Below are positions 16,110 through 28,753 of a stretch of DNA of 32,000 bases, in pieces. A model generated the notes under the pieces. That model worked only from the letters and a program-made list of their open reading frames with translations. It searched no databases and was not told the DNA's origin. Positions within the stretch are counted from its first letter, which is position 1. Each line of letters starts with the position of its first letter. This DNA is from Vulcanisaeta distributa DSM 14429 (GTDB lineage: Archaea > Thermoproteota > Thermoprotei > Thermoproteales > Thermocladiaceae), in assembly GCF_000148385.1 (NCBI RefSeq), contig NC_014537.1:120001-152000 (forward strand), written 5' to 3'. The translations under genes were made by a program, and so were the position numbers.

Positions 16110-16441
16110 CGGTGCGTTTGTTTATTTAGGTCTTTTTAAGTTTTTCTTCTTGGTGTTTTGGTGCCGTTGGAACGTCTTTCTGCTCTTAATTGCTGTGGCT
16201 CGTGCTTGTTTTCACGGTGTTTAAGTGGAATTGAATTGTTGTTCCCACGGAATTTCTACTCCGCCTAACCGAGCCTGTTCCAATGGTGTTTTATGCATTG
16301 TGAATTGGTGGGTGTGCATGGGACCATACACGCGGTGTGGTTTTGGGTCGTGTGTGGCTTGGTGAAAAACACTCCATGGGCTGTGCATGGTGCCGTGAAT
16401 TTTGCCCTGCCTTGGGTTCTTGGTTTCATGCCCTGAACCCT
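16110..16441 (-). promoter_or_regulatory. CRISPR leader region
   Basis: 332-bp non-coding tract between the ATPase stop (16442) and the first repeat. Strong G/T skew on the plus strand. The only ORF here (16221..16568) is His/Thr-rich and overlaps the ATPase gene. Confidence 0.6.
16132..16140 (-). promoter_or_regulatory. TATA box (sense CTTAAAAAG) driving the CRISPR array
   Basis: Its edge is 23 nt from the first repeat (16109). It belongs to the same box family as the gene promoters, so the predicted transcript starts at or next to the first repeat. Confidence 0.55.
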
Positions 16442-18532
16442 TCATTGTTGTGCTTCCTTGATTCTTGGTTCTAGTTCGATGATGCCCAGCCTCTTTATTG
16501 GCTCCGTTATTATGAGTGCCTTTGTGGTTAAGCCCTGCATGTGCGGTGGCAGTGCCGTTACCAACCACTTCATGTCCTCACTGGTCAACTGGAGGGCTTG
16601 GCTTACTGAGGCTACGTATGCGTCGTTCCCTCCTAACACGATGATTAGGGGTATGTTCTGAAGCACGTCACTCCCTATGCCAGTTAGTGTCTGGGTTATG
16701 AACACCGTGCCGAGGCCGAACTTCCTAACACCCCTAACCAGTAGCTCGGCTAGTGGTGAGTTTAGTAGGTAATAAGCCTCGTCTATGATGAGCAACTGCC
16801 GTAGTTGCTCACCTATGCTCATACTCATCACGTGGCTGTAGACGTGGTCAGCCACCACACCCATCATGAAAGCCATCACGTCCGGCGAAGCCCTAACCGA
16901 GCCGAACAATAGGGCCTTATTGTTTAGTAACTCACTGACCGGCACCACCTCGGCGCCCCTGAGGTGGCTCATTAATCGGTCGAGGGCTAGGGCCACCGAG
17001 TCATCGTCAGTGGCTGCCCTTAGGAACTCCATTGCCTTGAAGAAGTCCCTGTAAATGCCATTTGAGTATATCAACCTCAAGTCCGGCAGCATTGGCTTGG
17101 CGTCAATGCCGAGTATTGAGAATTCGGTAATGAGCCTATGAACCCTCTCAACATCAGTTAAGCCGTCAAGCTCGAAGAAATTAATGAATTTCCTAGTCAC
17201 GTCAATGGGCTCAATGCCCTGTATCCTCAGGTACTCACCGTGCGGGTCCAGGATGAGCGCCTTAATACCACTATTCATCAACCTGTGTAGGATTGTTGAT
17301 ACTGTCCAGGTCTTACCCATACCCGTTGGACCAACAACGAGCATGTGACCACTGGGCAACGCATCGAGGTCTATCTCCAACTCACTTCCCTCCCTATCCC
17401 TACCAAGCCTAACCCTAGCCCTCGAGGATTCGGCAATCAACCTGCCACCGTGGAATATGGGCACGATGGCTACGTCGTGGCTCAACTCATCGATTGTCGG
17501 CATTGACCAGAGTGGTAGCTGTCCCCTAAGCCAAGCCATGCGCATGTTCGTGTCGGGCAGGTCCCTATCACTAAGTATCATGACCCTCACAGGCTCCTCG
17601 GCGTTCTGGGTTATCCTATCAAGGACCACACGCCACCTACTGACTGCAGGCAGTGCCTTACCCCTCTCCTGGACAACGAGTTTTTCGTACTCCCTAGCCA
17701 CCCTAGTCGAGGTTACTGCACGGAACTCTGGATTACCCGAGATGATTAGTGCGTAGTTCTGTAGGTAATTAGCCACCGCCGACGCGACGGCCCTAACATC
17801 ATCATCGCTGGGCATTGTGTAGATTTTGTTCGAGGTAGCAAGCCTACGCCTCAGAACGCTAAATTGGCCACCTCTGATCACGGAGTAATTGCCTAGGCTT
17901 TTAACAGTGATTGCCGCGATTGCGGCGATAGTGATTAATCCATAAACCCTGAATAATAGGTATGAGGCAAGAAGTAGTGTTACCAACGCGGTAATGAGCC
18001 TAGCCTTGCTCGGCGTTGTTGGGAATCCAACCAACCTCCTAAGCTCCTCACCACCCAACTGCCTAAGCACGAAGTACTGCCTGAGTAGGTTCTCCCTGGC
18101 GGTTAGCCAGTTCATGAAGTCCTGGAGCTCGTCCTCGCCCCTAACAACCCTCGAAAGCCTAATGAACTTTTCACCACCAAGCCTAATGAATGCAATAGCC
18201 TCATTGGTGCCTAGGTTTAATCGCCTAATCAACTCATCGAACAAACCAACGTATTGAGCACCGGTCAATCGGCTTATGTCAAACATGGGCTCGGCACTGT
18301 AAAAGACATGCATCAACCTGCCCCTCGCATCATACACGTAGTCCTCACCGAGAACCAGCCTAGGCGCTAAGCCTGGGTAGATCAGCGTGAGGATTGACTC
18401 CACCAGCCACTCCCTAAAGTCCCGGTAAAGCATTGCCAGTGGTAGGAGTAGGATAAGTGGCCTGTAGACAATGCCCATTACAATGACTCCAATTAGGATT
18501 GCCAGGTAGATCCTTGGGTCTATCTCAGGCAT
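16442..18532 (-). CDS. membrane-anchored VirB4/VirD4/HerA-type (CedB/TedB-like) P-loop ATPase
   Basis: ATG at 18532 sits 21 nt from the TATA box (the track uses TTG at 18547). N-terminal TM helices (IYLAILIGVIVMGIV.., LITALVTLLLASYLLF..ITIAAIAAITV). Walker A VVGPTGMGKTWT, Walker B LLIIDEAYYL, and VFITQT. Confidence 0.8.
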   Translation of the reverse strand: MPEIDPRIYLAILIGVIVMGIVYRPLILLLPLAMLYRDFREWLVESILTLIYPGLAPRLVLGEDYVYDARGRLMHVFYSAEPMFDISRLTGAQYVGLFDELIRRLNLGTNEAIAFIRLGGEKFIRLSRVVRGEDELQDFMNWLTARENLLRQYFVLRQLGGEELRRLVGFPTTPSKARLITALVTLLLASYLLFRVYGLITIAAIAAITVKSLGNYSVIRGGQFSVLRRRLATSNKIYTMPSDDDVRAVASAVANYLQNYALIISGNPEFRAVTSTRVAREYEKLVVQERGKALPAVSRWRVVLDRITQNAEEPVRVMILSDRDLPDTNMRMAWLRGQLPLWSMPTIDELSHDVAIVPIFHGGRLIAESSRARVRLGRDREGSELEIDLDALPSGHMLVVGPTGMGKTWTVSTILHRLMNSGIKALILDPHGEYLRIQGIEPIDVTRKFINFFELDGLTDVERVHRLITEFSILGIDAKPMLPDLRLIYSNGIYRDFFKAMEFLRAATDDDSVALALDRLMSHLRGAEVVPVSELLNNKALLFGSVRASPDVMAFMMGVVADHVYSHVMSMSIGEQLRQLLIIDEAYYLLNSPLAELLVRGVRKFGLGTVFITQTLTGIGSDVLQNIPLIIVLGGNDAYVASVSQALQLTSEDMKWLVTALPPHMQGLTTKALIITEPIKRLGIIELEPRIKEAQQ

Positions 18533-18552
18533 CAATTTGATCGCCAACAGCC

Positions 18553-18560
18553 CTTAAAAG
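18553..18560 (-). promoter_or_regulatory. TATA box inside the palindrome CAGCCC-TTAAAAG-GGGCTG
   Basis: 21 nt from ATG 18532. The 6-bp flanking inverted repeat spans 18548-18566. Confidence 0.5.
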
Positions 18561-18567
18561 GGGCTGG

Positions 18568-19071
18568 TCAACGGTGAGGCCTAATGAACCTAGGCAACCA
18601 GGACAACCTATTACTCCTAGCCTGATTAACCCTGTAATCGCCGTTTATGACAGCCTTAAGGTCCTCCGGGCTTATCCTAACACCCTCACCCTGCAGTATG
18701 CCCATGAGTTGGTTAACATCAACCCTCCCAGTCTCCACGTACTCCCTAACCGCGTAATCACCGCATTGCAGTAGGTCGCACTGGGAGAGTAGTATCAACA
18801 CAGCCTCAACGCTCAAGCCCCTAGCCAAAACCTCACTGAGTAATTCATTGATTGACTCGGGGGTGAAGTAATTAACGAGCCTCGAAAGGACTGAGCGGCA
18901 GTAATCCCTAAGGGGCTCTGCGCACCTCAGGGACCAGGAATTAACGAATCTCGCCAACTCCCTGTTATCGCTGATTATCGACTTAACCCTAGCCATCCTG
19001 AGTTTCACCCTCCCCAACTCCACAATCTCCCTCTCCAGGCTCCTCAACCCATCCCTCCTAAGCAGCCTCAT
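18568..19071 (-). CDS. hypothetical protein
   Basis: 167-aa ORF. Its ATG overlaps the upstream stop (ATGA). Confidence 0.6.
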   Translation of the reverse strand: MRLLRRDGLRSLEREIVELGRVKLRMARVKSIISDNRELARFVNSWSLRCAEPLRDYCRSVLSRLVNYFTPESINELLSEVLARGLSVEAVLILLSQCDLLQCGDYAVREYVETGRVDVNQLMGILQGEGVRISPEDLKAVINGDYRVNQARSNRLSWLPRFIRPHR

Positions 19072-19442
19072 TGCCCTTCACCAACACCGCAGCCACACCT
19101 AGCCCTAAGCCACCTCCTGAAGGCATCCCCATACGCCTTGCCCACCCTCTCCTCAATCAATCTAACCCAATCCTCGGGATTCACGCCCCTGAGCGGCTCA
19201 TCACTATTAAGCAGCCTAGTCACTATGATAGCCCTCTCAATACTCGACAACCTATCAATCTCAGCAAGAACAGACTCAAGAATAGCCTGACCAGGCATTG
19301 GGAAGGGCAAGGGCTGACCCTGAGGACCCGGCGGAGGAGCTGGCAAGGAATCAACGACAGGCTGAACACCCGACCGACCATCCTGATCACCCCTACTAAT
19401 TAAACTCCTAAGGAAATTACTCATTGGGCTTTGGCCACTCAT
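19068..19442 (-). CDS. hypothetical protein with a Pro/Gln-rich linker
   Basis: 124-aa ORF. The ATG is 21 nt from the TATA box at 19463-19470. Confidence 0.55.
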   Translation of the reverse strand: MSGQSPMSNFLRSLISRGDQDGRSGVQPVVDSLPAPPPGPQGQPLPFPMPGQAILESVLAEIDRLSSIERAIIVTRLLNSDEPLRGVNPEDWVRLIEERVGKAYGDAFRRWLRARCGCGVGEGQ

Positions 19443-19462
19443 CAGTAGGGATTAATGATTAA

Positions 19463-19470
19463 TTTATAAG
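19463..19470 (-). promoter_or_regulatory. TATA box (sense CTTATAAA)
   Basis: 21 nt from ATG 19442. Confidence 0.5.
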
Positions 19471-19697
19471 GGGTAGGGGTGGTTGTTAGGTATTAAGGTC
19501 TTGATCACCGTTTAAACATGAAATTGACCAATCAACAGATTTAATAACGGAATACGCCATACTCACGGTACAATCACTCATTAAAAGTAGTACGAAAGGC
19601 ACTACGTGGCTAATTACCTCCTCATTAACCATGCACTAAATAACGTATGAAAATCTCGATAAATCCTTATTAATTTTTGTAATTATTAAGAAAAATC

Positions 19698-19889
19698 GTG
19701 ATCGCCGTACCTCTAAGGGTCGGGATTGAGATTAAGAAGGAGTACGTTTATTCAATAACCATCGTGAATGCTCAGAACCATTGCGACGTCCTTAGGAACA
19801 TTAAGACCCATTGTGAATCGACGTATGGTAGGGGTCACCCAGCGTGCCAGGGCTTAGAGACTGCCATTAACCACCTATGCAAAACCTAG
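19698..19889 (+). CDS. possible small Cys/His-rich protein
   Basis: 63-aa ORF with a GTG start 25 nt downstream of CCTTATTAAT (19665-19674). It contains 4 Cys and 4 His. It is convergent with the 225-aa gene and sits in an AT-rich 450-bp gap. Confidence 0.3.
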   Translation: MIAVPLRVGIEIKKEYVYSITIVNAQNHCDVLRNIKTHCESTYGRGHPACQGLETAINHLCKT

Positions 19890-20567
19890 TCATAAGCACT
19901 TTACGTTATTCTTCATTGGAACTTTATTTCTACAGTAGGACTCTAGGCATGCCCTTATCACATCACCAAGTCTTGCATTACATTCAATTCCATTGGCATT
20001 CTCGGCGGCGGCCCTAAATTTTATGGTATTGTTTTCATCAACGTCAGATGCGCATTGACTAAAGAGTTGAGGTTGATTTATGTGATACCTTGCACACATA
20101 ACATTGCCTGGAGGGAATACGAGAATGTATTGTTTATTAACAAATTGGTTAATATTCTGACAGACACTATTCGGTTTAATGTTCCCTAACGGGCCCCAGG
20201 CTGGGACTAACCTAAAGAGTATTAATGATTCCCTACCAACAATGTTCGTACTCACGGGATCATTGGGTAAAGCCCAGGCAGCTGATGCGCCATGAAGTTC
20301 AATATTATTGTCACGTAAGACCCCAACCCAGCCAGTGGCATTCCTCGTAACGAACCTCTCACCAATGCGCCAGTGATACCTAACCTCAAGCCTGGCGCCA
20401 CATTGAATAACCGTGACGTTCTGGCCATAAAAGTTAATATCTAACTCATTACCTGTAATGCCTACTAATTTGAACTCAGGCTTAAGACGCGTAGAAACGA
20501 CATAGCCAACAATACCACCAACAAAGCCAACAATACCACTAATAAGCTCATTTAACCATGCACTCAT
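19890..20567 (-). CDS. secreted or membrane-anchored Cys-rich protein with an N-terminal LNELISGIVGF hydrophobic signal
   Basis: 225-aa ORF with a single N-terminal hydrophobic helix. Its N-terminal motif is shared with the 257-aa ORF at 24638..25411. Confidence 0.65.
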   Translation of the reverse strand: MSAWLNELISGIVGFVGGIVGYVVSTRLKPEFKLVGITGNELDINFYGQNVTVIQCGARLEVRYHWRIGERFVTRNATGWVGVLRDNNIELHGASAAWALPNDPVSTNIVGRESLILFRLVPAWGPLGNIKPNSVCQNINQFVNKQYILVFPPGNVMCARYHINQPQLFSQCASDVDENNTIKFRAAAENANGIECNARLGDVIRACLESYCRNKVPMKNNVKCL

Positions 20568-20590
20568 TAATTAATAATCATATTTTAGCA

Positions 20591-20598
20591 CTTAAAAG
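20591..20598 (-). promoter_or_regulatory. TATA box (sense CTTTTAAG)
   Basis: 24 nt from ATG 20567. Confidence 0.45.
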
Positions 20599-20623
20599 TT
20601 TCCATTATCATTAGTTTTAGGGT

Positions 20624-21442
20624 TCATGATAGGCTTATTGATCCTGTTAGTAATGCCTTTGCTTGCCTTGTTAGTGTGTTGGTTATTGTTTCTATGGCCT
20701 TCTTGAATTGTGTTAGTGAGCCCTTTGGTTCGTATAGTACTGCGGGCTTCATTGTGGCTGTTAGGTACTGCGCAATGGGGCTTGTTGGTACTGTGAATAC
20801 CTCGCCGTTGTGTGCGTAGCCCCTGACCCTGCTCTCCACGGAGTCTAGGCTGGGTAGTGCCTTGTTTAGGATTACGTTGATTATCTTCCTATATCTGAGC
20901 TGGGTTATCATTGGCTGTATGTACGTGTCATCAATCTCCCTAAGCACATACTCACTATACGCCGCGTGGTCAAGGACTATGTTTATTATCTGCGACGTAA
21001 CCAACGCCGGTATTAGAATGGGCATTGGGGCGTTTGCGGGTAGGTCAATGAGGACTAACTGCGAGCCTGTGGCCATCACCAGCGAATTCACCAGGTAAAC
21101 CCACCTATTGAAGGATTCATTGACACCCAGCGTCAATTGGTAGGACTTGACACTGCCCGGGGGTACCACGAGTACGCTGGGCATGTACGTCGACCTACTA
21201 ACCAGTTGGTTAACATCACTCACAGCCCCAACTAGGAAGTCCAGCGCGCCCCGTCTCTCGGGGACAATGCCCAGGGTCCTACTGGACGTCTGGCTTGAGT
21301 CGATGCCGAGGTCGATCAGTAATACGTTAGCCCTAAGTGATTGGCTCATGGTTATCGCAAGGTTGGCGGCCAACGTACTCTTCCCAGTCCCACCCTTACT
21401 CCCACTGAAGAATGCCATCACGGCATACCTAGGCCTAAGCAT
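20624..21442 (-). CDS. ParA/MinD-family ATPase (TadZ/FlhG-like position in the pilus operon)
   Basis: Deviant Walker A FFSGSKGGTGKST. The ATG at 21442 overlaps the upstream stop (ATGA). Confidence 0.85.
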   Translation of the reverse strand: MLRPRYAVMAFFSGSKGGTGKSTLAANLAITMSQSLRANVLLIDLGIDSSQTSSRTLGIVPERRGALDFLVGAVSDVNQLVSRSTYMPSVLVVPPGSVKSYQLTLGVNESFNRWVYLVNSLVMATGSQLVLIDLPANAPMPILIPALVTSQIINIVLDHAAYSEYVLREIDDTYIQPMITQLRYRKIINVILNKALPSLDSVESRVRGYAHNGEVFTVPTSPIAQYLTATMKPAVLYEPKGSLTQFKKAIETITNTLTRQAKALLTGSISLS

Positions 21443-23004: not shown

Positions 23005-23009
23005 GCGGA

Positions 23010-24125
23010 TCACCAAATGAGCGGTATCAACGGCGCCAAGAATATCGGTACCAGGCTGATGCCGAGGCCCACTGAGTGCATCGCCTTACCAACCAGGATG
23101 GACGTGGTTATGGCCAGAGGCATCAACGTGGCATTGACTAGCTGCGGGTCTAGGCTGATGGGCATGCCTAAGCCCGTTATCGCCGTGGCGTGTATGCCGG
23201 CCAGTACGTAGGCTGTGAACACCATGAATGCGTAGCCCACGGCAATGAAGGGCCCGTAGATGAAGCCCATCATTACCGAACGCCTGATGAAGTCTATTAG
23301 TGAGTCGACAACCATGTTCACACGCTCAACAAACTCCCTAACACCAACGCCATATGCATAGTCCCAGAGCGGCTTGAGATCTCGCTCGACCACGGTCAGC
23401 GGCCTTGGTGGTTGTGGGTTTGGTACCGTGAGTAGGTCATTGAATGAGCTCAAAACCCTCTGGGGAAGCCCCAGGTAATTCGCCACGAACCTAATGAACT
23501 GAGGCATGTACAAAACGGCGAAGCCAACGCCGAAGCCCAGGGCGGTTATAAACCAAAGCCTCGTGGCGCCCAGGCCCACTAGGTAATTGCCCAGTGTGAA
23601 TGCCGTTAAACCACCGATTAAGCCTGCCATCGCTGGCTTGGTGTAGTCGTACCTAACTAGCTCCACCTGGTAGTGGTGGATGATTGGTAATAGGGCGATG
23701 CCTATTATGGATACTGTGGGCGGTGCACCGAGTATTGCCATGAAGGATGCTACACCGAGCATTACCGCAATGATGATCACGGCAGTCAACGCCTTACCCT
23801 GCCAATCAAGCTGCTGGTTAAGCCAATTACTGAACTTGCTCATCAACGCCAAAAACGTGATTGATGGATCACTACCGGCGGTGAAGTAGGAGTTGGCTAT
23901 GCTGAGGAGCTCCCTCCTAAAACCCCTGGGTAGGGCCCATGGGTTGTTGAAGGCCCTCATCACAGTGGCTATCCTACGCCAAGCCCTACTGAGCTTAGCA
24001 CTCTCGTTAACCGCATTATCAACCCCATCCACCGGGGCCCTAACTATGAAGACTAAGTCGGCAACAACCTCCCCAACATCCATCAAGAGGACAATAAACA
24101 GGCATTTTAAGGGGGAATTAACCAA
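23010..24125 (-). CDS. TadC/FlaJ/GspF-like pilus platform membrane protein
   Basis: 371-aa ORF with a two-fold pattern of soluble helical segment followed by a TM cluster. It sits immediately upstream of the ATPase. The start is uncertain: TTG at 24125 or ATG at 24083. Confidence 0.7.
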   Translation of the reverse strand: MVNSPLKCLFIVLLMDVGEVVADLVFIVRAPVDGVDNAVNESAKLSRAWRRIATVMRAFNNPWALPRGFRRELLSIANSYFTAGSDPSITFLALMSKFSNWLNQQLDWQGKALTAVIIIAVMLGVASFMAILGAPPTVSIIGIALLPIIHHYQVELVRYDYTKPAMAGLIGGLTAFTLGNYLVGLGATRLWFITALGFGVGFAVLYMPQFIRFVANYLGLPQRVLSSFNDLLTVPNPQPPRPLTVVERDLKPLWDYAYGVGVREFVERVNMVVDSLIDFIRRSVMMGFIYGPFIAVGYAFMVFTAYVLAGIHATAITGLGMPISLDPQLVNATLMPLAITTSILVGKAMHSVGLGISLVPIFLAPLIPLIW

Positions 24126-24163
24126 TGATTTTGATTTTTAACGTCTTCACCGTTTTAACGAGT

Positions 24164-24604
24164 TCATGAGACCGCCGCGGTGTATGTGCCGCTGCTTGTT
24201 ATCACGGCTACGCTTGTGACTTCATCAACCCCTGGGTTGCAGTTTGAGTAGGTTATTGTCAGTGTTTGGCCTGGCTTAAGCGTTATTGGTAAGCCGCCGC
24301 TCAACTGCTGGCCGTCTAGGTAGTACGTGGTTAATGAGCACGTTGCCTGGCCCTGCCCGGCATATAGGATTACGCTCTCAACCCTCAAACTCCCAACACC
24401 AGCATCCTTAATATTCACGAACAATACCCCACTACTCGTTGTTGCAGTCACCATTGGGGCATTCGCCATACCCAACGACCTACTCACACCTCCATACACC
24501 ACGTACATTACGACCAACGCCATGACCATACCCACTAAGGTAACCACAAGCCAAAGCACAGTAAACTCACCACCCCTAGCCCTACTCTCCACCTTAGTGC
24601 TCAT
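24164..24604 (-). CDS. pilin-like protein (class III signal peptide-like N-terminus)
   Basis: ATG at 24604 is 21 nt from the TATA box. The sequence MSTKVESRARG/GEFTVLWLVVTLVGMVMALVV is followed by a beta-rich, Thr/Ser-rich domain. Confidence 0.65.
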   Translation of the reverse strand: MSTKVESRARGGEFTVLWLVVTLVGMVMALVVMYVVYGGVSRSLGMANAPMVTATTSSGVLFVNIKDAGVGSLRVESVILYAGQGQATCSLTTYYLDGQQLSGGLPITLKPGQTLTITYSNCNPGVDEVTSVAVITSSGTYTAAVS

Positions 24605-24624
24605 CAATAGCACTTATTGACTTA

Positions 24625-24632
24625 TTTTTAAG
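24625..24632 (-). promoter_or_regulatory. TATA box (sense CTTAAAAA)
   Basis: 21 nt from ATG 24604. Confidence 0.5.
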
Positions 24633-24637
24633 GGGTC

Positions 24638-25411
24638 TTAGCCATTACATTTCACGTGTATTGTTAGGTCTGTGTTTGGTGATGCGATTAACATGTATGT
24701 GAACTGAATGTAGTTTAGGCCCTCAGTCTTTGATAGGAGTATTGGCTGGACGCCCGGGCTAGTCTCAAGCCAGCATTCAAGTGGCGTAGTACTATTATTG
24801 TATGCCAGGTAGTAGTATCTATACGTAACCTCGATGAGTAATGGGCCGTAGGTGAATATGTCCTTAACAGCATATCCACCGAAGTATGGGTTATTACTCT
24901 CATCAAGTCCGATGGAGCCACTCACGCCCTTATTATCCCCGACACCAACCCAACTCACAGAACCCTCACTAAAGGGATCAACGATTAAGGTTATGTTAAC
25001 CCAGCCGGAGCCTGACGGTGCATCATCAATCATGGACCAACCGCTGGCCCTGGCTATCACGCACACTGAGGGCTTTATTGCGGAGCAAACCATGACTGCG
25101 CTAGGCAAATCACTGGCTTGGTAGAACCAGGCCTGGTCATGGTACAGCACGTTGCTCCTAACCTCGATATGAGAGCCATCACTAAGGAATATCGCCTTAA
25201 CGAAGAATGGCTCATGACCAGCGTTGACCACGGCCATGTAGTAACCACCCTCGTAGGGCACAACATCAACCACAGGCCATAGGTAGTTGGCTAGGACTTG
25301 ACTTTGTACGTATTGGTAATATCCGTAGATCACCCCTCCAACGGCCATGGCCATTATCACCATCGCAATTATAAAGCCAACAACCCCACTAAACAACTCA
25401 TCAAGGTTCAT
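24638..25411 (-). CDS. secreted or membrane-anchored protein with an N-terminal LDELFSGVVGF hydrophobic signal
   Basis: 257-aa ORF with a single N-terminal helix. The motif is paralogous to the N-terminus of the 225-aa ORF. Confidence 0.65.
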   Translation of the reverse strand: MNLDELFSGVVGFIIAMVIMAMAVGGVIYGYYQYVQSQVLANYLWPVVDVVPYEGGYYMAVVNAGHEPFFVKAIFLSDGSHIEVRSNVLYHDQAWFYQASDLPSAVMVCSAIKPSVCVIARASGWSMIDDAPSGSGWVNITLIVDPFSEGSVSWVGVGDNKGVSGSIGLDESNNPYFGGYAVKDIFTYGPLLIEVTYRYYYLAYNNSTTPLECWLETSPGVQPILLSKTEGLNYIQFTYMLIASPNTDLTIHVKCNG

Positions 25412-25431
25412 CAGTTAGAAGGCTTTACCCA

Positions 25432-25439
25432 CTTTTAAG
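25432..25439 (-). promoter_or_regulatory. TATA box (sense CTTAAAAG, preceded by CCCGC)
   Basis: 21 nt from ATG 25411. Confidence 0.5.
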
Positions 25440-25446
25440 GCGGGCA

Positions 25447-25743
25447 TTACTGACTACTTACCACGGTGTTGTTCATTGGAATTGATGGGCATGAGTAGTA
25501 GGTTATGTTGTAGTAGCCGTTATTTACTGTGTAGACTAGGCAGTAACCATCAAGCACAGGCCCATTACCACCCACCTGGGTAACCGGCTTCGGCGGCTCG
25601 TAACTACCCATCAAGCCAGCCCAACGAGCCCTATCAATCATTGACTTACCAAGGGACACGCTGATCGCGATTAAGCCGGTAACGGCAATAATCGCCAAAG
25701 CCACTATAACCGCGGTGGTCACTGAGGTTATGCCGGACTTCAT
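25447..25743 (-). CDS. archaeal type IV pilin-like protein
   Basis: From ATG 25743 the sequence is MKSG/ITSVTTAVIVALAIIAVTGLIAI, a short basic N-terminus followed by a long hydrophobic helix typical of class III signal peptides. The track start, GTG at 25767, is too close to the TATA box. Confidence 0.7.
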   Translation of the reverse strand: MKSGITSVTTAVIVALAIIAVTGLIAISVSLGKSMIDRARWAGLMGSYEPPKPVTQVGGNGPVLDGYCLVYTVNNGYYNITYYSCPSIPMNNTVVSSQ

Positions 25744-25771
25744 GGGCAACCACCAAATCGATTTCACTTAA

Positions 25772-25779
25772 TTTTTAAG
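25772..25779 (-). promoter_or_regulatory. TATA box (sense CTTAAAAA, preceded by CCAC)
   Basis: 29 nt from ATG 25743. Confidence 0.45.
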
Positions 25780-25790
25780 GTGGTTAAGGG

Positions 25791-26201
25791 TCACGTGGGG
25801 CTCCCAATCGCCATCCTGAGGTAGTTAGCCAGGTTCTTAAACATGAGGATTAGCACGTACGTAGCCTCACTAGCCGGGTTCGCGCTGGATGCCCCAATCA
25901 TTGAGGCTATTAGGAAGATTATGTATATGCTCAGCCAAATGCCCAGGGCACCGCCGATTATGCGCTTATGATGCCCGAAGATCTCGTTCAGGGCGCCACT
26001 CCTCCCGAAGCTTGTTGGGTGCACTATGTACTCGACAGTGTTGTATAGTATCATGCCAATACCAATTAGGAGGGCGAGACCACCAATGGCCAGTAGTGCA
26101 TTGAATATTGGCGAGACCACGGTACTAACCACCTCATTAACGACCTGCGTCGCGTTAATCGTATTCCCGGTCTGAAGCACTATGTGTGTTATTGTGCCCA
26201 T
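25791..26201 (-). CDS. small two-TM membrane protein (VirB2/CedA1/TedC-like topology; speculative)
   Basis: Two ~25-aa hydrophobic helices separated by a basic loop (GRSG..GHHKR). ATG at 26201 is 21 nt from the TATA box. Confidence 0.6.
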   Translation of the reverse strand: MGTITHIVLQTGNTINATQVVNEVVSTVVSPIFNALLAIGGLALLIGIGMILYNTVEYIVHPTSFGRSGALNEIFGHHKRIIGGALGIWLSIYIIFLIASMIGASSANPASEATYVLILMFKNLANYLRMAIGSPT

Positions 26202-26221
26202 CAACCATATTTAATAATTGA

Positions 26222-26229
26222 CTTATAAG
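26222..26229 (-). promoter_or_regulatory. TATA box (sense CTTATAAG)
   Basis: 21 nt from ATG 26201. It overlaps the stop of the upstream gene. Confidence 0.5.
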
Positions 26230-27092
26230 GGTAATACATCGATTATCGCCTCATCGAAGACCCTGTACAGGCCGTAGCTCGCGGCAAGGGCCATGGCCAG
26301 GGCTACGTCGACGGTTACGTCGAAGGTCTGCATCACGAGGGCTTGGGAGTAGCCCTGGTCAATTATTAACTTGAGGGAGCCAGTCACGTCACTCCAGAGG
26401 TTTGAGGCCCCAAGCTGAGCCAGTGGCTTGCTTAATGAAGCCACTGTGTAGGCGCTCAGTAGTGGCCCGAGCACCGCCACAATTATGAGGAAAGCCACTA
26501 TGAAGGTGCCGAGGCTCCTGGTCTGCCTGACAATGACTAGACCAATGCCGAGGGGTAGTAGCCACCAGGCGTTGTAGGCTATTAGGTTCAGTGCGTAGAT
26601 GAAGCCTAGGTTTATTATTGTGTACGTGATCATTGTCTGGAGGTACCAGGTACTTTGCTGTAGGTACCACGATAATGGGCTTGTCACTGGGACGAGGTTC
26701 AGTGTGAGGACTGTGCCCCAGAAGGTTGCGTAGAAGCCCGTGGTCTCGTTGAAGTACCTAAACGCCGTTAGGTAGCCCCACCTCAACAGTGCCTGCGGGT
26801 CACCGGCGCTCGGTAGGTAATTGGCGAGCGTGGTACTGCCCACCGGTATTGCCGAGGCAATTTCATGCGTAAGCCAGGGTAAGAAGGAGGAACCTGGGGC
26901 TAGGAGCAATGCGTATAAGGTACCGAGCATTACGGAACCAACAACCACGTCGAGGACCTCATCAACACCCTCACGACGAACCTCTGGGGTGGGCCCATGC
27001 AGGTACTTGACAAAGCCGTGGATGAGGACTGAGGCTGCAATACTGCCAAACAGGCCAACACCGAGGATACCCAATGATGGTGAGGCACTCAT
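26223..27092 (-). CDS. polytopic (~6 TM) membrane protein (VirB6/CedA-like role is speculative)
   Basis: ATG at 27092 is 21 nt from the TATA box (the track uses TTG at 27104). Hydrophobic helices throughout. Confidence 0.7.
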   Translation of the reverse strand: MSASPSLGILGVGLFGSIAASVLIHGFVKYLHGPTPEVRREGVDEVLDVVVGSVMLGTLYALLLAPGSSFLPWLTHEIASAIPVGSTTLANYLPSAGDPQALLRWGYLTAFRYFNETTGFYATFWGTVLTLNLVPVTSPLSWYLQQSTWYLQTMITYTIINLGFIYALNLIAYNAWWLLPLGIGLVIVRQTRSLGTFIVAFLIIVAVLGPLLSAYTVASLSKPLAQLGASNLWSDVTGSLKLIIDQGYSQALVMQTFDVTVDVALAMALAASYGLYRVFDEAIIDVLPL

Positions 27093-27112
27093 CGATTTTA
27101 CCAATCAAGCGC

Positions 27113-27120
27113 CTAATAAG
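27113..27120 (-). promoter_or_regulatory. TATA box (sense CTTATTAG, preceded by CCAC)
   Basis: 21 nt from ATG 27092. Confidence 0.5.
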
Positions 27121-27124
27121 GTGG

Positions 27125-28705
27125 CTACTGCCAGCAATTCACCCTAACCTCAACACTCCCCCTCAGGTTGCTCGGTATTAGGTTCACCAGGTCCGCAACC
27201 ACGTACTGCAGAGTCTCACATACCGCGTTGGCACTGCTCTCCCTAACCGCATTTAGCATCGCCTCCACGTCATTCGAGATCAAACGCAGCGCGCCGAGGA
27301 CCTCCCCACCACTCAGTAGTTTGATTAGGGGCTTGACTATCGCCCTATCCCTCTCGTAAGCCCTAACCAACCCCAGCAATGCCTCGGCCAGGCCCGCATC
27401 ACCTAAGTAGTTAGCCAGTGAGTTCAGGGCCTCGGAGAGGGCGTCACTACCAGCCTTACTAGCTAGCCTGGCGGCTAGCATTATCGATGCCCTAGCCATT
27501 GAGTCAACCCTCCAATCCCTAGAGGCATTGGACAACTCCCTAATGACGGGGCATGTGTCATCATCGCACGTAAACTCAAAATACCTCCTAAACAACACGC
27601 CAGGGCCAGCCTCAGGAGAATCACCAACCCCAGCCTCACTGTTGGCCTCGTCACTAGCCACATTACCAACCACCGAATCACTGAACCGCACATCGCCAGT
27701 GTAAATAAGGACCTTGGCATCACCCAGCCTACCCTCATTAATCAACGCAATAACCCTCTTAACAAGGCCAAGGCCGGAATCGGCGGGCATCCCCTGGAGC
27801 CTCCTTGCCAACACCTCGAGGTCGCGGAGACTAAGCCTAAACAAAGCCCTCAGGTCTGTGGAGTTTACATCGCCACCCCTCAATAAGCCACTAATCTTGA
27901 GGACCCTAAGCCTCTTGGTAATCTCATCGTTGAGGTTATTCGCAGAACCTTGTTCCACGTTCTCACGATCAACGTTTTCGGGAGAACTCACGAAGTCACG
28001 ACGAAAGCGCTCACGATTGCTTTCGTCGTGAACTGCATTACTTCCAATATTTCCACCGTTATTGCTCAGAAGTTTTTCCACGATATTCCTAAGTTCATTG
28101 ATGAAATCGTTATTGAGTATCAACGCCCTTATGTAATTTTCGCCTGTTCGTATGTTGGCTCTTATGTACTTGCTGAATACCTTGGCGAGTTCCGTCGTGT
28201 GGAATCCCCTGCCCAACTCATCAATTAGCTTGAGCGCCTCAGCTGGGCTGTTTATTGCGTGGTCTATCACGTAGTTCTTAATGAGCTCCCTCGCAAAGTC
28301 CAACTTAATCTCCCTATCATCTCTATCCTCATGTACGTGGCATAACTCCGCCGCCAGCGCCATGACCGCAAACCTCTCTGACTCATCATAATCACCAAGG
28401 CTCCACACCATTACCCTAACCCTATCCAGCGCAGGGTGCTCCATGGATGCCACCGCCCTGTATAGGCATGTGCTCGTTAATACGTAATTACCAATGACTA
28501 TGACCGGTAGCAACGCACGCCTTTGCCTACTGTCGAGCAACCTATTCAGGTATGCATCATCGAGGAGCCTACCAACGTCACCCTCACTGCACGGGCACGG
28601 GTGCCAGGGAGGTATCCTAAACCTACTGCGGAACTCCCTAAGCGTCATCTCCTCCCTACCCTTAACGTCAAGGTCCAATGAAAGCTCTATAGCCTCAATA
28701 GCCAT
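27125..28705 (-). CDS. large hypothetical protein with a possible ParB/Srx-like N-terminal domain
   Basis: 526 aa from ATG 28705. LLPVIVIGNYVLTSTCLYRAVASMEHPALDRVRVMVW follows the ParB N-domain strand / 'GxxR..A' / strand pattern, but without the GHHR residues. It has an AT-rich, Asn-rich low-complexity middle and an Ala/Leu helical C-terminus. Confidence 0.65.
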   Translation of the reverse strand: MAIEAIELSLDLDVKGREEMTLREFRSRFRIPPWHPCPCSEGDVGRLLDDAYLNRLLDSRQRRALLPVIVIGNYVLTSTCLYRAVASMEHPALDRVRVMVWSLGDYDESERFAVMALAAELCHVHEDRDDREIKLDFARELIKNYVIDHAINSPAEALKLIDELGRGFHTTELAKVFSKYIRANIRTGENYIRALILNNDFINELRNIVEKLLSNNGGNIGSNAVHDESNRERFRRDFVSSPENVDRENVEQGSANNLNDEITKRLRVLKISGLLRGGDVNSTDLRALFRLSLRDLEVLARRLQGMPADSGLGLVKRVIALINEGRLGDAKVLIYTGDVRFSDSVVGNVASDEANSEAGVGDSPEAGPGVLFRRYFEFTCDDDTCPVIRELSNASRDWRVDSMARASIMLAARLASKAGSDALSEALNSLANYLGDAGLAEALLGLVRAYERDRAIVKPLIKLLSGGEVLGALRLISNDVEAMLNAVRESSANAVCETLQYVVADLVNLIPSNLRGSVEVRVNCWQ

Positions 28706-28726
28706 CACTAAAAAGTCAATAGGCCC

Positions 28727-28734: not shown

Positions 28735-28753
28735 GCTGGGCTTAATAAGTATC

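Follow-up and report, generated by a model that had tools for sequence, protein, structure and literature searches.

A Vulcanisaeta gene block combining a type IV pilus cassette, a RadA paralog and candidate components of a Ced/Ted-type DNA-transfer apparatus

Gene content and conservation of the block

A 32,000-nt stretch (the window) of the chromosome of the hot-spring archaeon Vulcanisaeta distributa DSM 14429 was found to carry, at 16442..28708 on the minus strand, 13 co-oriented genes. Among their products are three ATPases (FlaI/GspE, ParA/MinD and a HerA/VirB4-superfamily member anchored in the membrane), a 2-TM hairpin, a 6-TM protein and four secreted proteins with N-terminal anchors. 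ORF calls recovered on that strand every reading frame listed in an earlier note on this DNA, with start codons a few codons away from those proposed there. The borders drawn in that note (16442-28705) were too narrow, since the conserved unit spans ~5909..31944 and additionally contains a 1444-aa protein, a TraD/CedD-like ATPase, a helicase of the XPD/DinG type and, lying within it, a CRISPR array. Its features are the following (related loci carry the prefix L).

5909..7285, minus: 458-aa SF2 helicase of the XPD/DinG family, with which the part of the block common to L005 ends
7290..8073, minus: 88-aa ORF, and 176-aa protein with a coiled coil and a membrane anchor at its C-terminus
8238..8747, minus: 169-aa conserved protein, downstream of the 445-aa ATPase
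8729..10066, minus: 445-aa soluble HerA/VirB4/VirD4-superfamily ATPase, TraD/CedD (TedD)-like
10035..10910, minus: 291-aa conserved protein
10925..15259, minus: 1444-aa 'extended VirB6-like' protein
15322..16109, minus: CRISPR array of 12 25-nt repeats (minus strand GAAGATTTCAATAGAATATTGAAAG) separated by 11 spacers, each 42-47 nt long
16442..18547, minus: 701-aa membrane-anchored HerA/VirB4-superfamily ATPase, TedB/CedB/CedD-like motor candidate
18568..19071, minus: 167-aa soluble helical protein, second in a conserved trio with the 701-aa ATPase
19068..19442, minus: 124-aa soluble protein, first in that trio
19890..20567, minus: 225-aa secreted protein with an N-terminal anchor, a variable accessory
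20624..21445, minus: ParA/MinD/FlhG-family ATPase
21442..23016, minus: secretion ATPase of the FlaI/GspE/TadA family, motor for the assembly of type IV pili
23010..24125, minus: 371-aa polytopic membrane protein, TadC/FlaJ-like platform candidate
24164..24613, minus: conserved pilin candidate, ~142-149 aa
24638..25411, minus: 257-aa secreted protein with an N-terminal anchor, candidate for a minor pilin or FlaG-like protein
25447..25767, minus: secreted or anchored protein, ~98-106 aa
25791..26204, minus: 137-aa 2-TM hairpin protein, candidate pilin or adaptor
26223..27104, minus: 293-aa membrane protein, ~6 TM, candidate VirB6/CedA/TedA-like channel
27125..28708, minus: 527-aa protein, first gene of the co-oriented run
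28754..29737, plus: divergent full-length RadA/Rad51 paralog with HhH domain and ATPase core
29859..30635, plus: 258-aa conserved protein
30754..31383, minus: 209-aa conserved protein
31549..31944, plus: ribbon-helix-helix (CopG-type) regulator, part of the conserved block

Overlaps of 4-7 bp joined the TadC-like gene to the FlaI start, FlaI to ParA, and the 124-aa to the 167-aa gene (4 bp), and gene spacing suggests two operon-like units, one running from 28708 to 19890 and the other from 19442 to 16442. At least 16 related loci shared the order 6-TM, 2-TM, pilin, TadC-like, RadA paralog, FlaI, ParA, 124-aa gene, 167-aa gene and VirB4-like ATPase. The contiguity of pilus and conjugation-type parts to which the earlier note drew attention was thus found again, both in genomes of Vulcanisaeta and in no fewer than 16 distinct metagenome contigs, a recurrence that excludes chance linkage. 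Copy number and gene content of the block differed between strains. In L005, ParA came immediately after the 2-TM gene, and the remaining genes kept the same order down to the helicase, indicating that the pilus cassette is dispensable.

Several less characterized genes also travelled with the block. Homologs of the 291-aa protein stayed with it in L005 (66% identity), L014 (37%) and L096 (46%), those of the 209-aa protein in L005, L014 and L092, and a 35%-identical homolog of the 258-aa protein lay beside RadA in L005; none of the three proteins had a family match. The 445-aa to 169-aa gene order was kept in L005 and L014, and homologs of the 88-aa ORF and the 176-aa protein, whose C-terminal TM covers residues 133-176, occurred in the same order in L005. 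The regulator (Pfam RHH_1, E 4.3e-5) had a homolog at the same block end in L005 and others beside block genes in L092 and L096. The 527-aa protein (GenBank ADN49564, 'hypothetical protein') had a homolog of 28-40% identity at the same position in L005; it had been called ParB-like, a label that found no backing in Pfam, NCBIfam, PHROG, PADLOC or PDB searches. The CRISPR array ended in a degenerate repeat on its 15322 side and has a putative leader at 16110..16441. Of 59 related loci, 13 had an array that began 144-245 bp past the stop codon of the ATPase gene; L005 had none at the corresponding site.

Pilus cassette and candidate motor ATPases

The product of 21442..23016 belongs, as proposed, to the FlaI/TadA/VirB11 family: it matched Pfam T2SSE (5.1e-22), its best PDB matches were archaeal GspE 2oap (1.7e-19), FlaI 4ii7 (1.1e-15) and CpaF (2.9e-14), and the NCBIfam TadA-type (1.1e-25), FlaI (8.9e-21) and VirB11 (3.3e-18) models all scored below their cut-offs. 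The adjacent platform candidate, always located upstream of RadA-FlaI, has two cytoplasmic regions, each followed by a TM block. Its TadC/FlaJ likeness is supported by position, topology and a published PSI-BLAST link, but not by any match in Pfam, NCBIfam or PDB searches. The link concerns V. distributa GI 307594292, placed in arCOG10359 'TadC/FlaJ family' at E 0.006 in iteration 2 and adjoining ATPase GI 307594291 (Makarova 2016).

A single N-terminal hydrophobic helix was present in four proteins (25447.., 24638.., 24164.. and 19890..), of which only those at 24164..24613 and 25447..25767 (KSG-ITSV) resembled class III signal peptides, in agreement with the earlier count of two such N-termini and two further single-helix secreted proteins. 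The pilin candidate has a class III-like family motif, R-[RSKG]-G-E-F-[TN]-[VI]-L-W, ahead of the hydrophobic helix, and its homologs (39-43% identity) came after the 2-TM gene in all full loci. The product of 25447..25767, with a single N-terminal TM and the N-terminus MKSG/ITSVTTAVIV, had no homolog in the metagenome loci and so represents a variable part of the cassette. The 257-aa protein, anchored by an N-terminal TM, had an N-terminal homolog within a 583-aa protein of L096 and is, by consecutive numbering, probably GI 307594294, described as arCOG10434, 'Arch_flagellin HHpred 52.9, closer to FlaG' (Makarova 2016). The helix of the 225-aa protein lacks a basic leader, and its homologs were placed elsewhere within some related loci. 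The predicted ParA/MinD ATPase was likewise verified (Pfam CbiA 2.6e-10, AAA_31 5e-7; deviant Walker A KGGTGKST), and its gene directly followed FlaI in all loci other than L005.

The 701-aa ATPase carries hydrophobic/TM segments at residues 8-41 and 181-219 and falls within the HerA-FtsK superfamily, as the HerA/VirB4-type assignment had implied. Its strongest Pfam match was DUF87 (4.8e-16), ahead of TrwB_AAD_bind (2.3e-6), AAA_10 (2.5e-6) and FtsK (1.1e-5). A profile of its family (A3) matched HerA 9x1l (1.7e-11), SsoHerA 4d2i (2.5e-10, residues 381-633), VirB4 4ag5 (1.1e-5) and TrwB (0.5) in PDB; PADLOC returned mad8/HerA, and NCBIfam matches to CedD (3e-12), HerA (1e-6), CedB (1.2e-5) and VirB4-like CD1110 (2.1e-5) were all far below cut-offs. 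The 124-167-ATPase order was retained in every related locus. Neither small trio protein had a family match; the distant contig L010 carried a 107/172/675-aa trio at the same position, in which only the 675-aa ATPase matched a window protein. The 445-aa ATPase (GenBank ADN49547, 'type IV secretion system DNA-binding domain-containing protein') matched Pfam TrwB_AAD_bind (1.9e-6) and NCBIfam CedD (1.5e-8) and VirB4_CagE (1.8e-4). A 351-aa homolog (36% identity) adjoined the 6-TM homolog in L012/L013, and one of 366 aa (29%) lay between ParA and the trio in L096. Both ATPases scored highest with HerA-type models, and these data give no VirB4-clade placement.

Candidate conduit proteins and recombination enzymes

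The AF2 model of the 6-TM protein (pLDDT 84, pTM 0.78) had TrwI/VirB6 of R388 (8rt9_F) as its top Foldseek PDB match (E 0.094, prob 0.93, 288 aligned columns) and also matched 8rtd_L, 7o3v_G and 7o3v_F. VirB6, to which the earlier note likened the topology of this protein, is the best solved-structure match of the 6-TM model, a weak one (TM 0.34-0.43). The family was limited to Vulcanisaeta, Caldivirga, Thermocladium and a few metagenome groups. Its members adjoin DUF87 ATPases in loci lacking type IV pilus genes (L005, L012/L013, L010), which ties them to the ATPases and not to the pilus. The 1444-aa protein, with homologs in L004-L007 and L014, has ~7 TM segments in its N-terminal part, an extracellular domain rich in NxS/T and, at the C-terminus, a long helical domain. 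Alignment by hhalign of its N-terminal profile (A5) with the 6-TM profile (A1) gave a score of 34.7 (E 2.6e-4) over IAxxAW...(D/Q)(R/T)TRxxG, a score reached by 0 of 300 block shuffles (mean 14.9, sd 2.8, max 27.2). By this profile comparison, the 6-TM protein has a paralog in the membrane domain of the 1444-aa protein, a pair reminiscent of CedA and CedE of Sulfolobales, which are both reported to resemble VirB6 (PMC11868833).

The 2-TM gene directly followed the 6-TM gene in every locus. N-terminal NxT/S sequons and the conserved basic loop (EYxxHPTSxGRxxALxE...HxKR) between its two TM segments point to termini outside and a loop inside. The two TM segments were confirmed, but the protein could not be linked to VirB2, CedA1 or TedC. 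Neither the single sequence nor two profiles matched any PDB sequence at E<=10, TedC, CedA1 and VirB2 chains included; the poor AF2 model (pLDDT 62) matched none of these folds, and the protein has no Sec signal peptide, whereas TedC has one (PMC11823120).

The RadA-like and XPD-like flanking genes were both substantiated. The RadA paralog matched Pfam Rad51 (5.8e-34) and, over residues 17-326, NCBIfam RadA at 154.9 bits against a cut-off of 259. The helicase matched PDB XPD 3crv (E 0.004, residues 2-221) and PADLOC type IV DinG (2.8e-10), and contains four cysteines (C84, C99, C102, C134). Its homologs in L005, L016 and L071 lay downstream of the ATPase gene.

Relation to known systems and proposed working

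A simple adhesion-pilus arrangement is not what the block represents, because in at least 16 related loci a homolog of the RadA paralog (61-63% identity) separates the TadC-like gene from FlaI. The alternative of an integrated conjugative element was not borne out, as no integrase, att repeats or circular form was found for the block; no relaxase was found either. The novelty claimed earlier was overstated. Makarova et al. 2016 had placed Vulcanisaeta loci of this kind, which carry MinD and two membrane proteins, in type IV pilus subclade 4G, and Ted loci of Vulcanisaeta that include ParA, a recombinase and a HerA-like ATPase were described by Beltran et al. 2023. The gene set agrees with the published Ted list for Pyrobaculum and Vulcanisaeta, namely VirB2-like, VirB6-like and VirB4-like proteins, ParA, the HerA-like/TedD ATPase and a recombinase (PMC9905601; PMC11823120). 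The order differs from that of P. calidifontis, which has tedB upstream of tedC and tedA downstream of it. The parts were thus known, catalogued separately, and the block is probably a variant of a described system.

The presence of adhesive-pilus genes, conjugation-type parts and an extra recombination enzyme in the same cluster points to what is probably one DNA-passing machine, and a Ced/Ted/Ups-like role in DNA transfer is the most economical reading. The data establish which genes and protein families are present, that their linkage is conserved, and that copy number and content vary. In the scheme that we infer, which extends to transfer direction, substrate, the roles of the uncharacterised proteins and self-mobility, the FlaI-type ATPase and TadC-like platform would build a pilus in which the conserved 149-aa pilin is joined by variable minor subunits, and this pilus would draw cells together, like Ups pili in Sulfolobales. 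The 6-TM protein and its 1444-aa paralog would form the membrane conduit, with the 2-TM hairpin as a conjugative-type pilin or as an adaptor to the motor. Two ATPases, the membrane-anchored HerA/VirB4-type one of 701 aa and the soluble TraD/CedD-like one of 445 aa, would drive DNA through it, ParA may place or load the substrate in the manner of VirC1, and the RadA paralog and XPD/DinG helicase would prepare the transferred strand for homologous recombination. Taken together, these results lead us to favour, by a little over even chances, the view that Vulcanisaeta has in this block its own form of a T4SS-derived Ced/Ted-type apparatus for cell-to-cell DNA transfer, whose gene cluster also incorporates a type IV pilus cassette and a recombinase paralog.

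Organization and conservation of the pilus and ATPase genes

ORF calling placed 13 ORFs on the minus strand from position 28708 down to 16442, separated by short gaps or overlapping by 4-7 bp. The lone larger gap, of ~450 bp at 19443..19889, divides the run into two operon-like units. The locus is chromosomal and its host is a member of the Thermoproteales. Exact look-ups in GenBank for strain DSM 14429 returned ADN49547 (445 aa), ADN49549 (1444 aa), ADN49558, ADN49559 and ADN49564. The genes of the run and of the larger block around it are the following.

31549..31944, ribbon-helix-helix (RHH) regulator
28754..29737, RadA paralog
27125..28708, minus strand, 527-aa protein
26223..27104, minus strand, 293-aa protein with about six TM helices (6-TM protein)
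25791..26204, minus strand, 137-aa two-helix hairpin protein (2-TM protein)
25447..25767, minus strand, 106-aa protein
24638..25411, minus strand, 257-aa protein
24164..24613, minus strand, 149-aa pilin candidate
23010..24125, minus strand, TadC-like protein
21442..23016, minus strand, FlaI/TadA-type ATPase
20624..21445, minus strand, ParA/MinD ATPase
19890..20567, minus strand, 225-aa protein
19068..19442, minus strand, 124-aa protein
18568..19071, minus strand, 167-aa protein
16442..18547, minus strand, 701-aa membrane ATPase
10925..15259, 1444-aa protein
10035..10910, 291-aa protein
8729..10066, 445-aa ATPase
8238..8747, 169-aa protein
5909..7285, helicase

The Pfam and PDB assignments confirmed what an earlier note had observed on this DNA, namely that pilus genes and a conjugation-type ATPase gene lie in one co-oriented run. 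The pilus genes are the best-supported assignments of the block. The protein encoded at 21442..23016 is a FlaI/TadA-type ATPase (Pfam T2SSE, 5.1e-22; PDB 2oap, 1.7e-19, FlaI, 1.1e-15, and CpaF, 2.9e-14), and the one encoded at 20624..21445 is a ParA/MinD ATPase (CbiA, 2.6e-10). The proposed TadC/FlaJ platform protein matched no Pfam, NCBIfam or PDB entry, but position, topology and literature favour the assignment: the 371-aa protein is polytopic, its gene overlaps the start of the FlaI ATPase gene, and arCOG10359 has been linked to TadC/FlaJ by PSI-BLAST with an E value of 0.006 (Makarova et al. 2016, PMC4858521). The 527-aa protein had been called ParB-like; it found no match in Pfam, NCBIfam, PHROG, PADLOC or PDB and the name was dropped. 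As proposed, the hydropathy scan detected a single N-terminal helix in each of four small or medium proteins, two of which, the 149-aa and the 106-aa protein, have class III signal-peptide-like leaders. The motif R-x-G-E-F-x-[VI]-L-W followed by a helix is present in the 149-aa family in all loci, and the 106-aa protein has the N-terminus KSG/ITSV, while the 257-aa and 225-aa proteins have the N-terminal helix and lack the basic leader and the conserved G. No pilin profile matched these proteins, and the class III leaders are predictions judged from the sequence. No prepilin peptidase (PibD/FlaK) is encoded within the window; in archaea its gene is usually located elsewhere in the genome.

Related loci (numbered L) were collected from genomes and metagenome contigs by one genome scan, one metagenome scan and exact look-ups, and were mapped by tblastn of the window proteins. 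Their dominant architecture, present in at least 16 distinct contigs (e.g. L008, L015, L037, L058, L071, L096 and L097), begins with the genes for the 6-TM protein, the 2-TM protein, a 149-aa-type pilin, a ~200-aa CxC...CxH protein and a ~110-aa coiled-coil protein, and continues with those for the TadC-like protein, the RadA paralog, FlaI, ParA, a variable stretch, and the trio of 124-aa-type, 167-aa-type and 701-aa-type (ATPase) genes. Thus, the linkage of pilus and ATPase genes recurs in the synteny comparison, with the RadA paralog between the TadC-like and FlaI genes in at least 16 loci. Pilus genes, recombinase paralog and HerA/VirB4-type ATPase form a stable association in these contigs, which is therefore no accident of the V. 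distributa genome. In most metagenome versions of the cluster (L008 2774-3355, L015 2049-2663), the pilin gene is followed by the gene for the ~200-aa protein, whose conserved CxC...CxH motif is SWIM-like; the window lacks this gene.

The extent of the conserved unit was taken from the locus of Vulcanisaeta sp. JCM 14467 (L005), whose order is (numbers standing for protein lengths in aa) RHH, 209, RadA, 258, 527, 6-TM, 2-TM, ParA, 124, 167, ATPase, 1444, 291, 445, 169, 88, 176, helicase. This is the block of the window down to the helicase, with the RadA-258 pair inverted, and comparison of the two delimits a conserved unit from about 31944 to 5909 in the window, a larger one than the earlier note had described. 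The six genes of the pilus cassette are cleanly missing from L005, where the 2-TM gene ends at 8144 and the ParA gene starts at 8208, and the cassette is therefore a separable module. A ~200-aa CxC...CxH protein is encoded upstream of the RHH gene of this locus without pilus genes (1003-1641, minus strand). In other loci the accessory genes accompany the cluster in permuted order, as in V. thermophila (L014), L092 and L096. In L096, a 445-like ATPase gene lies between ParA and the trio, and a 1449-aa gene, the RHH gene and the 291 gene lie upstream of the 6-TM gene; the part compared of the 1449-aa product had no detectable similarity to the 1444-aa protein of the window. In L092, the 445-aa homolog is found beside the 209 and RHH genes. 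In the drafts of JCM 11216 and JCM 14467 (L004-L007) the tblastn matches were split into many in-frame pieces; such breaks are typical of indel sequencing errors, and apparent pseudogenes there are untrustworthy. According to the supplement of Makarova et al. 2016 (PMC4858521), V. distributa has a further ATPase outside the window, GI 307596359, with a 268-aa MinD-type ATPase (GI 307596358) as its neighbour; GI 307596359 is the sister of the ATPase that is apparently in the window. A second and more divergent pilus-ParA module may therefore exist in DSM 14429.

Channel and motor candidates and the recombinase paralog

The hydropathy scan gave about six helices for the protein encoded at 26223..27104, which had been proposed to be VirB6/CedA-like. 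Its AlphaFold model, built from a 34-sequence alignment (pLDDT 84, pTM 0.78), was compared by Foldseek with 350,542 PDB chains. The top match was TrwI/VirB6 of the R388 T4SS (8rt9_F, E 0.094, probability 0.93, 288 aligned columns), and three further VirB6 chains were among the matches, with TM 0.34-0.43. By fold, VirB6 thus ranks first, although at a high E value, and the sequence profile of the family matched nothing among PDB sequences; the modelled resemblance is weak yet specific. An exhaustive HMMER search with this profile over 1.84 billion representatives returned 23 proteins in total, the named ones from Vulcanisaeta, Caldivirga and Thermocladium and the rest unnamed metagenome proteins; there was no named Pyrobaculum protein among them. 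The 6-TM gene adjoins the 2-TM gene in all loci. In two unrelated contexts, L012/L013 and the MGE-like contig L010, a DUF87 ATPase gene lies near the 6-TM homolog without a pilus ATPase, no T2SSE gene being present within 10 kb. On L010 a 107/172/675-aa trio is arranged like the 124/167/701-aa trio of the window.

The N-terminal membrane domain of the 1444-aa protein, judged by profile alignment, is a paralog of the 6-TM protein: hhalign gave a score of 34.7 (E 2.6e-4) over a common IAxxAW...(D/Q)(R/T)TRxxG segment, a score that none of 300 block shuffles reached (mean 14.9, sd 2.8, maximum 27.2). Because the range of the HMMER matches, the DUF87-ATPase neighbours without a pilus ATPase and the 1444-aa paralogy agree with the fold match, we read the 6-TM protein as a putative VirB6-like protein. 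Bacteria possess extended VirB6 proteins, which the short and extended channel pair seen here recalls. The two paralogs likewise recall CedA and CedE of Sulfolobales (PMC11868833). The chromosomal MAG locus represented by L012 (8363-10810) and L013 has a gene for a 269-aa homolog of the 6-TM protein and, divergent from it, a 169-aa gene and the gene for a 351-aa DUF87 ATPase that is 36% identical to the 445-aa ATPase of the window. Ribosomal-protein and housekeeping genes surround this pair and pilus genes are absent within 10 kb; it may be a minimal chromosomal version of the system.

At 25791..26204 the hydropathy scan also confirmed the 2-TM hairpin. From the sequons and the basic loop, its termini are predicted to lie outside and its loop inside, which is the topology of conjugative pilins. 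The suggested kinship with VirB2, TedC or CedA1 was not borne out. Searches of PDB chains at E<=10, TedC 8DFT included, by phmmer and with 5-sequence and 7-sequence profiles, found only a designed repeat protein, and in a fold search with a model of pLDDT 62 the top 50 held generic helical matches only, the TedC, CedA1 and VirB2 entries (8DFT, 8DFU and 8EXH) being absent from them. The protein has no hydrophobic Sec signal peptide. TedC, a VirB2-like two-helix pilin with BLASTP homologs across Thermoproteales (Beltran et al. 2023, PMC9905601), carries a cleavable one (PMC11823120). A true TedC could be encoded elsewhere in the V. distributa genome. Homology between the 2-TM protein and the N-terminal hairpin of the 6-TM protein, after the CedA1/CedA pattern, was considered and rejected, the hhalign score of 15.8 being equalled by 58 of 200 segment-wise shuffles; the rejected alignment covered TM1 and the loop motifs EYxxHPTSxGR and KYxHGPTPEVRR.

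The 701-aa protein (16442..18547) is, as the earlier note had it, a membrane ATPase of the HerA/VirB4/FtsK superfamily, with a Pfam DUF87 match of 4.8e-16 and weaker matches to TrwB, AAA_10 and FtsK. It has hydrophobic stretches at residues 8-41 and 181-219, and four predicted TM helices. In a search of PDB with a 23-sequence profile, HerA models (9x1l, 1.7e-11; S. solfataricus HerA, 2.5e-10) outscored VirB4 (4ag5, 1.1e-5), FtsK (6e-3) and TrwB (0.5), and its C-terminal motifs weakly matched the VirB4-like CD1110, TraC and TrbE models of NCBIfam. PADLOC returned mad8 (9.5e-20) and several HerA defence models, which represent generic HerA cores. The 445-aa ATPase lacks a TM anchor. It matched Pfam TrwB_AAD_bind at 1.9e-6, above the cut-off (27.5 against 20.5 bits), and its GenBank/NCBI name is taken from the TraD/coupling-protein DNA-binding domain. 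CedD was the best NCBIfam model for both ATPases (3e-12 for the 701-aa and 1.5e-8 for the 445-aa protein), followed by HerA, CedB and VirB4-type models, all of them far under the curated cut-offs; the Ced-model scores were 46 and 34 bits against a cut-off of 600. These profile matches place both proteins in the HerA-FtsK superfamily, at the level of the superfamily and not of the VirB4 or VirD4 clade. By the earlier note, a 701-aa ATPase outside the VirB4/VirD4/HerA-FtsK clades would have counted against the proposal, and the superfamily placement suffices to set that objection aside.

The RadA-like and XPD-like flanks reported earlier also held up. The RadA-like protein matched Pfam Rad51 at 5.8e-34 and the NCBIfam RadA model over its full length with 155 bits; this score falls under the cut-off of 259, and we therefore consider it a divergent paralog. 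The helicase is plausibly XPD-like, with a PDB match to XPD (3crv) at E 0.004, a PADLOC match to DinG at 2.8e-10 and four cysteines with FeS-domain-like spacing. Genes left of 5909 had no homolog in any related locus. The G+C content of positions 1-4130 is 43-48%, against 51-55% across the block, and a 628-aa ORF at 2244-4130 has a Gly/Pro-rich N-terminus and a weak PHROG match as its sole family match; positions 1-4130 may be the edge of the conserved block or strain-specific cargo. A 63-nt intergenic repeat containing a GC-rich inverted repeat (CCCCAACC...GGTTGGGG) occurs at 5447-5509 and 8139-8201 in two copies that are 79% identical. The 232-aa gene has one of these copies upstream of it, and the 169-aa gene has the other on its downstream side; the repeat may act as terminator, regulatory site or small RNA.

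A CRISPR array in a variable slot

Between the 701-aa ATPase gene and the 1444-aa gene lies the following array.

15322-16109, CRISPR array of 12 repeats of 25 nt (minus strand GAAGATTTCAATAGAATATTGAAAG) and 11 spacers of 42-47 nt, with an inferred leader at 16110-16441

One of the repeats is altered by an indel, and the outermost one on the 15322 side is degenerate. Two features suggest that the array is read in the direction of the genes: the ATTGAAAG end of the repeat on the minus strand, and the distal position of the degenerate repeat. There are no cas genes within the window. The spacers matched neither phage records, nor the window itself, nor the 95 related loci, and the repeat sequence is likewise absent from those 95 loci. 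Arrays of at least three repeat families, none of them that of the window, begin 144-245 bp past the ATPase stop codon in 13 of the 59 non-redundant related loci, at 212-245 bp in L015, L020, L025, L026, L029, L047, L051 and L055-L057; L089, L090 and L092 also belong to this set. In L089-L092, just the last ~96 ATPase codons are left beside the array, which in L092 is followed by type I-A-like cas genes; these arrangements reflect a deletion polymorphism or else a site where arrays dock recurrently. Filled by the array in the window and by 5-7 kb of P-loop genes in L006 and L007, and empty in L005, the slot between the ATPase and 1444-aa genes behaves as a cargo hotspot. Its contents in JCM 11216 (L006 6482-11604, L007 3335-10354) include genes for large P-loop proteins, for example of 572 aa (with GPPSSGKSF), 839 aa and 635 aa.

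Relation to known systems and nature of the block

The published Ted system consists of the TedC pilin, the TedA channel and the TedB ATPase (Beltran et al. 2023, PMC9905601). TedA is a 6-7-TM protein encoded beside the pilin gene and profile-related to CedA/VirB6, and Ted loci commonly carry HerA-like and ParA genes, with a recombinase gene in Pyrobaculum and Vulcanisaeta (PMC9905601); TedD, a CedD homolog, is encoded in the same locus (PMC11823120). The recombinase was named Rad50, yet the role given to it, single-strand coating and the start of strand invasion (PMC9905601), is that of RadA/Rad51. Compared with this published description, the locus shares the archaeal order of the host, the Thermoproteales, the chromosomal location, a 2-TM hairpin beside a 6-7-TM protein with a VirB4/HerA-type ATPase a few genes off, a second, CedD-like ATPase, ParA and a recombinase gene. 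The TedB, TedD, ParA and recombinase content has its counterpart in two HerA/VirB4-superfamily ATPases, a ParA and the RadA paralog, the correspondence of the ATPases being at superfamily level only. In contrast to Ted, the 2-TM protein has neither the Sec signal peptide of TedC nor a sequence match to the TedC PDB chain, the 6-TM gene is upstream of the 2-TM gene and the ATPase gene downstream, the cluster encloses a complete type IV pilus cassette and a RadA paralog, a 1444-aa protein is present as second channel paralog, and the locus is multicopy and varies between strains. The gene set fits the Ted description well, as the published Vulcanisaeta Ted locus or as a paralogous system.

With the Ced and Ups systems of Sulfolobales the locus has in common a type IV pilus, which serves cell-cell contact there, alongside a T4SS-derived importer, two HerA/VirB4-type ATPases of which one or both are membrane-anchored (CedB, CedD), two VirB6-like paralogs (CedA, CedE) and unprocessed small 2-TM proteins (CedA1/A2); CedD is also the best NCBIfam match of both ATPases, at scores far below the cut-off. 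However, ups and ced are separate loci in Sulfolobales, whereas one cluster, recombinase included, is found here, and no sequence relation of its membrane parts to CedA or CedA1 was detected. Thermoproteales have been reported to lack a Ups-like pilus, so that Ted pili alone may find partners (PMC9905601; PMC11823120). In our literature search we found no published account of the pilus cassette and Ted-like genes as one conserved cluster with the recombinase inside.

Part of the block has been described before as type IV pilus (T4P) subclade 4G of Vulcanisaeta and Caldivirga, with a divergent TadC (arCOG10359), PilA-family and FlaG-like pilins, a MinD/FleN ATPase and two membrane proteins, arCOG10497 (5 TM, about 294 aa) and arCOG10500 (2 TM, about 134 aa) (Makarova et al. 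2016, PMC4858521). The locus agrees with it in the FlaI-family ATPase, TadC/FlaJ, the pilins, the MinD/FleN ATPase and the two extra membrane proteins. The 2016 study, however, took both membrane proteins as pilus parts and drew no link to VirB4/HerA-type ATPases, RadA or DNA transfer (PMC4858521). Its supplement gives for V. distributa GI 307594291 (ATPase), 307594292 (arCOG10359) and 307594294 (arCOG10434) (PMC4858521). Since the consecutive numbering fits, these are probably the FlaI, TadC-like and 257-aa genes of the window (ADN49557, ADN49558 and ADN49560).

Bacterial elements that combine their own type IV pilus with a T4SS-type translocon include the IncI1 plasmid R64, with its thin pilus, and islands of the PAPI-1/ICEclc type. 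Their pilus stabilises mating pairs, and they have double-membrane machinery, a relaxase, an oriT and proven self-transfer; their accessory parts are not known to be homologous to those found here. The conjugative plasmids of Sulfolobales (pNOB8, pKEF9, pING, pARN) encode TrbE/VirB4-like and TraG/VirD4-like ATPases, polytopic membrane proteins and ParA, some of them carry CRISPR arrays, and they can integrate. To our knowledge they have no recognisable relaxase or pilin, no type IV pilus and no RadA paralog. Their integrase and replication genes were not seen in the window. Archaeal conjugative plasmids have been noted to lack a relaxase (PMC9905601), and no relaxase family matched any window ORF of at least 100 aa.

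On this evidence we lean, by a modest degree, towards the view that the block is a DNA-transfer system of the Ted/Ced type, derived from a T4SS and with a type IV pilus and a recombinase built in; the interpretation given in the earlier note is thus supported in part. We take the block to be a strain-variable chromosomal island, probably of plasmid ancestry, the main rival being an active integrated conjugative element (ICE). That rival takes the block (about 5909..31944 or more) as a self-transferring integrated plasmid, with the pilus as mating-pair device and the CRISPR array and defence genes as cargo, and we consider it possible but rather less probable. It accounts well for the three divergent copies that JCM 11216 holds on separate small contigs, with ATPases 74-81% identical to that of the window, where one copy was detected in DSM 14429; for the pair of ATPase copies that share a contig in the MAG of Vulcanisaeta sp. 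EB80; for the many variants at 50-60% identity within single metagenomes; for module orders permuted as though cut from a circle (L096, L092); and for the variable slot behind the ATPase gene. The block has ParA, an RHH regulator and a helicase, and the Sulfolobales plasmids pNOB8 and pKEF9 combine TrbE/TraG-like ATPases and CRISPR arrays with the lack of a relaxase. The earlier note, which had also raised an integrated conjugative element, had asked for a check of presence/absence polymorphism and of att-like border repeats; polymorphism was found (three copies in JCM 11216, no pilus cassette in L005, a 3' remnant of the ATPase gene in L089-L092), whereas border repeats and an integrase were not found in the window. 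The 32-kb window, which does not extend to clear block borders, has no integrase, no tRNA gene, no convincing att-like direct repeat and no relevant Rfam family. No contig had a terminal overlap, none was circular, and an IMG/VR scan gave no relatives. A tblastn search of PLSDB, which seemingly lacks archaeal plasmids, gave one marginal Alteromonas match to the ATPase and no sequence similarity to the Sulfolobales plasmids, and is uninformative. Moreover, all the Vulcanisaeta genomes sampled carry the cluster (V. distributa, V. moutnovskia, V. thermophila, JCM 14467 and EB80), and in many metagenome contigs it lies beside a full, chromosomal-looking CRISPR-Cas locus. It is the weighing of copies, variants and permutation against the lack of integrase, att sites and circles and the presence in all Vulcanisaeta genomes that leads us to the chromosomal island.

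Two further explanations dispense with DNA transfer. The block could be a complex subclade 4G adhesion or aggregation locus, with the 6-TM and 2-TM proteins as pilus accessories and the HerA-type ATPases, RadA and helicase as mere neighbours. Vulcanisaeta and Caldivirga loci with MinD and two membrane proteins were filed under that subclade (Makarova et al. 2016, PMC4858521), the arCOG10497 gene of Caldivirga adjoins a PilA-family pilin gene, the 6-TM homolog of Thermocladium stands alone among housekeeping genes, and the pilus genes are the firmest assignments. We nevertheless regard an adhesion organelle as improbable: L005 keeps 6-TM, 2-TM, ParA, 124, 167 and ATPase with the pilus genes wholly absent, the 6-TM family is paired with DUF87 ATPases in L012/L013 and L010, where no T2SSE gene lies within 10 kb, VirB6 is the best structural match of the 6-TM protein, and a RadA paralog inserted between TadC and FlaI in at least 16 loci is hard to explain. 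Least credible of all is a defence island of HerA-type ATPases, DinG/XPD helicase and CRISPR array with incidental transport-like proteins. PADLOC does relate the 701-aa ATPase to mad8 and HerA defence models and the helicase to type IV CRISPR-associated DinG (2.8e-10), and an array follows directly on the ATPase gene in the window, as it does in 13 of 59 related loci, with type III or I-A cas genes beyond it in some. However, the PADLOC matches are to generic HerA and DinG cores, the array is missing at the other 46 loci, and the partners typical of HerA defence systems, such as a nuclease, Sir2 or a methylase, were not found. Moreover, the ATPase has four predicted TM helices, and its gene always comes after one and the same pair of small genes, after ParA and the pilus genes, and after those for the 6-TM and 2-TM proteins.

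In Vulcanisaeta, a type IV pilus cassette, a recombinase paralog and Ted/Ced-like parts share one conserved cluster. A bolder proposal, which we put forward as doubtful, is that the ~26-kb block might represent an undescribed family of self-transmissible (or recently domesticated) Thermoproteales conjugative elements. One mobile unit would then combine a mating pilus of type IV, a translocon derived from a T4SS, in which two HerA/VirB4-type motors serve beside two VirB6-like paralogs, a recombinase of its own of RadA type and, directly behind the VirB4-like gene, a CRISPR docking site; if so, the block would be the source of the 'domesticated' Ted system. The clean absence of the pilus cassette from one genome offers a natural experiment on whether contact pili and DNA translocon are one machine. 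The RadA paralog, ParA and the 124/167-aa pair stand out as specific candidates for handling the substrate, which of all steps in archaeal DNA exchange is the one understood least, and the variation in copy number and gene order bears on whether these systems were domesticated from plasmids.
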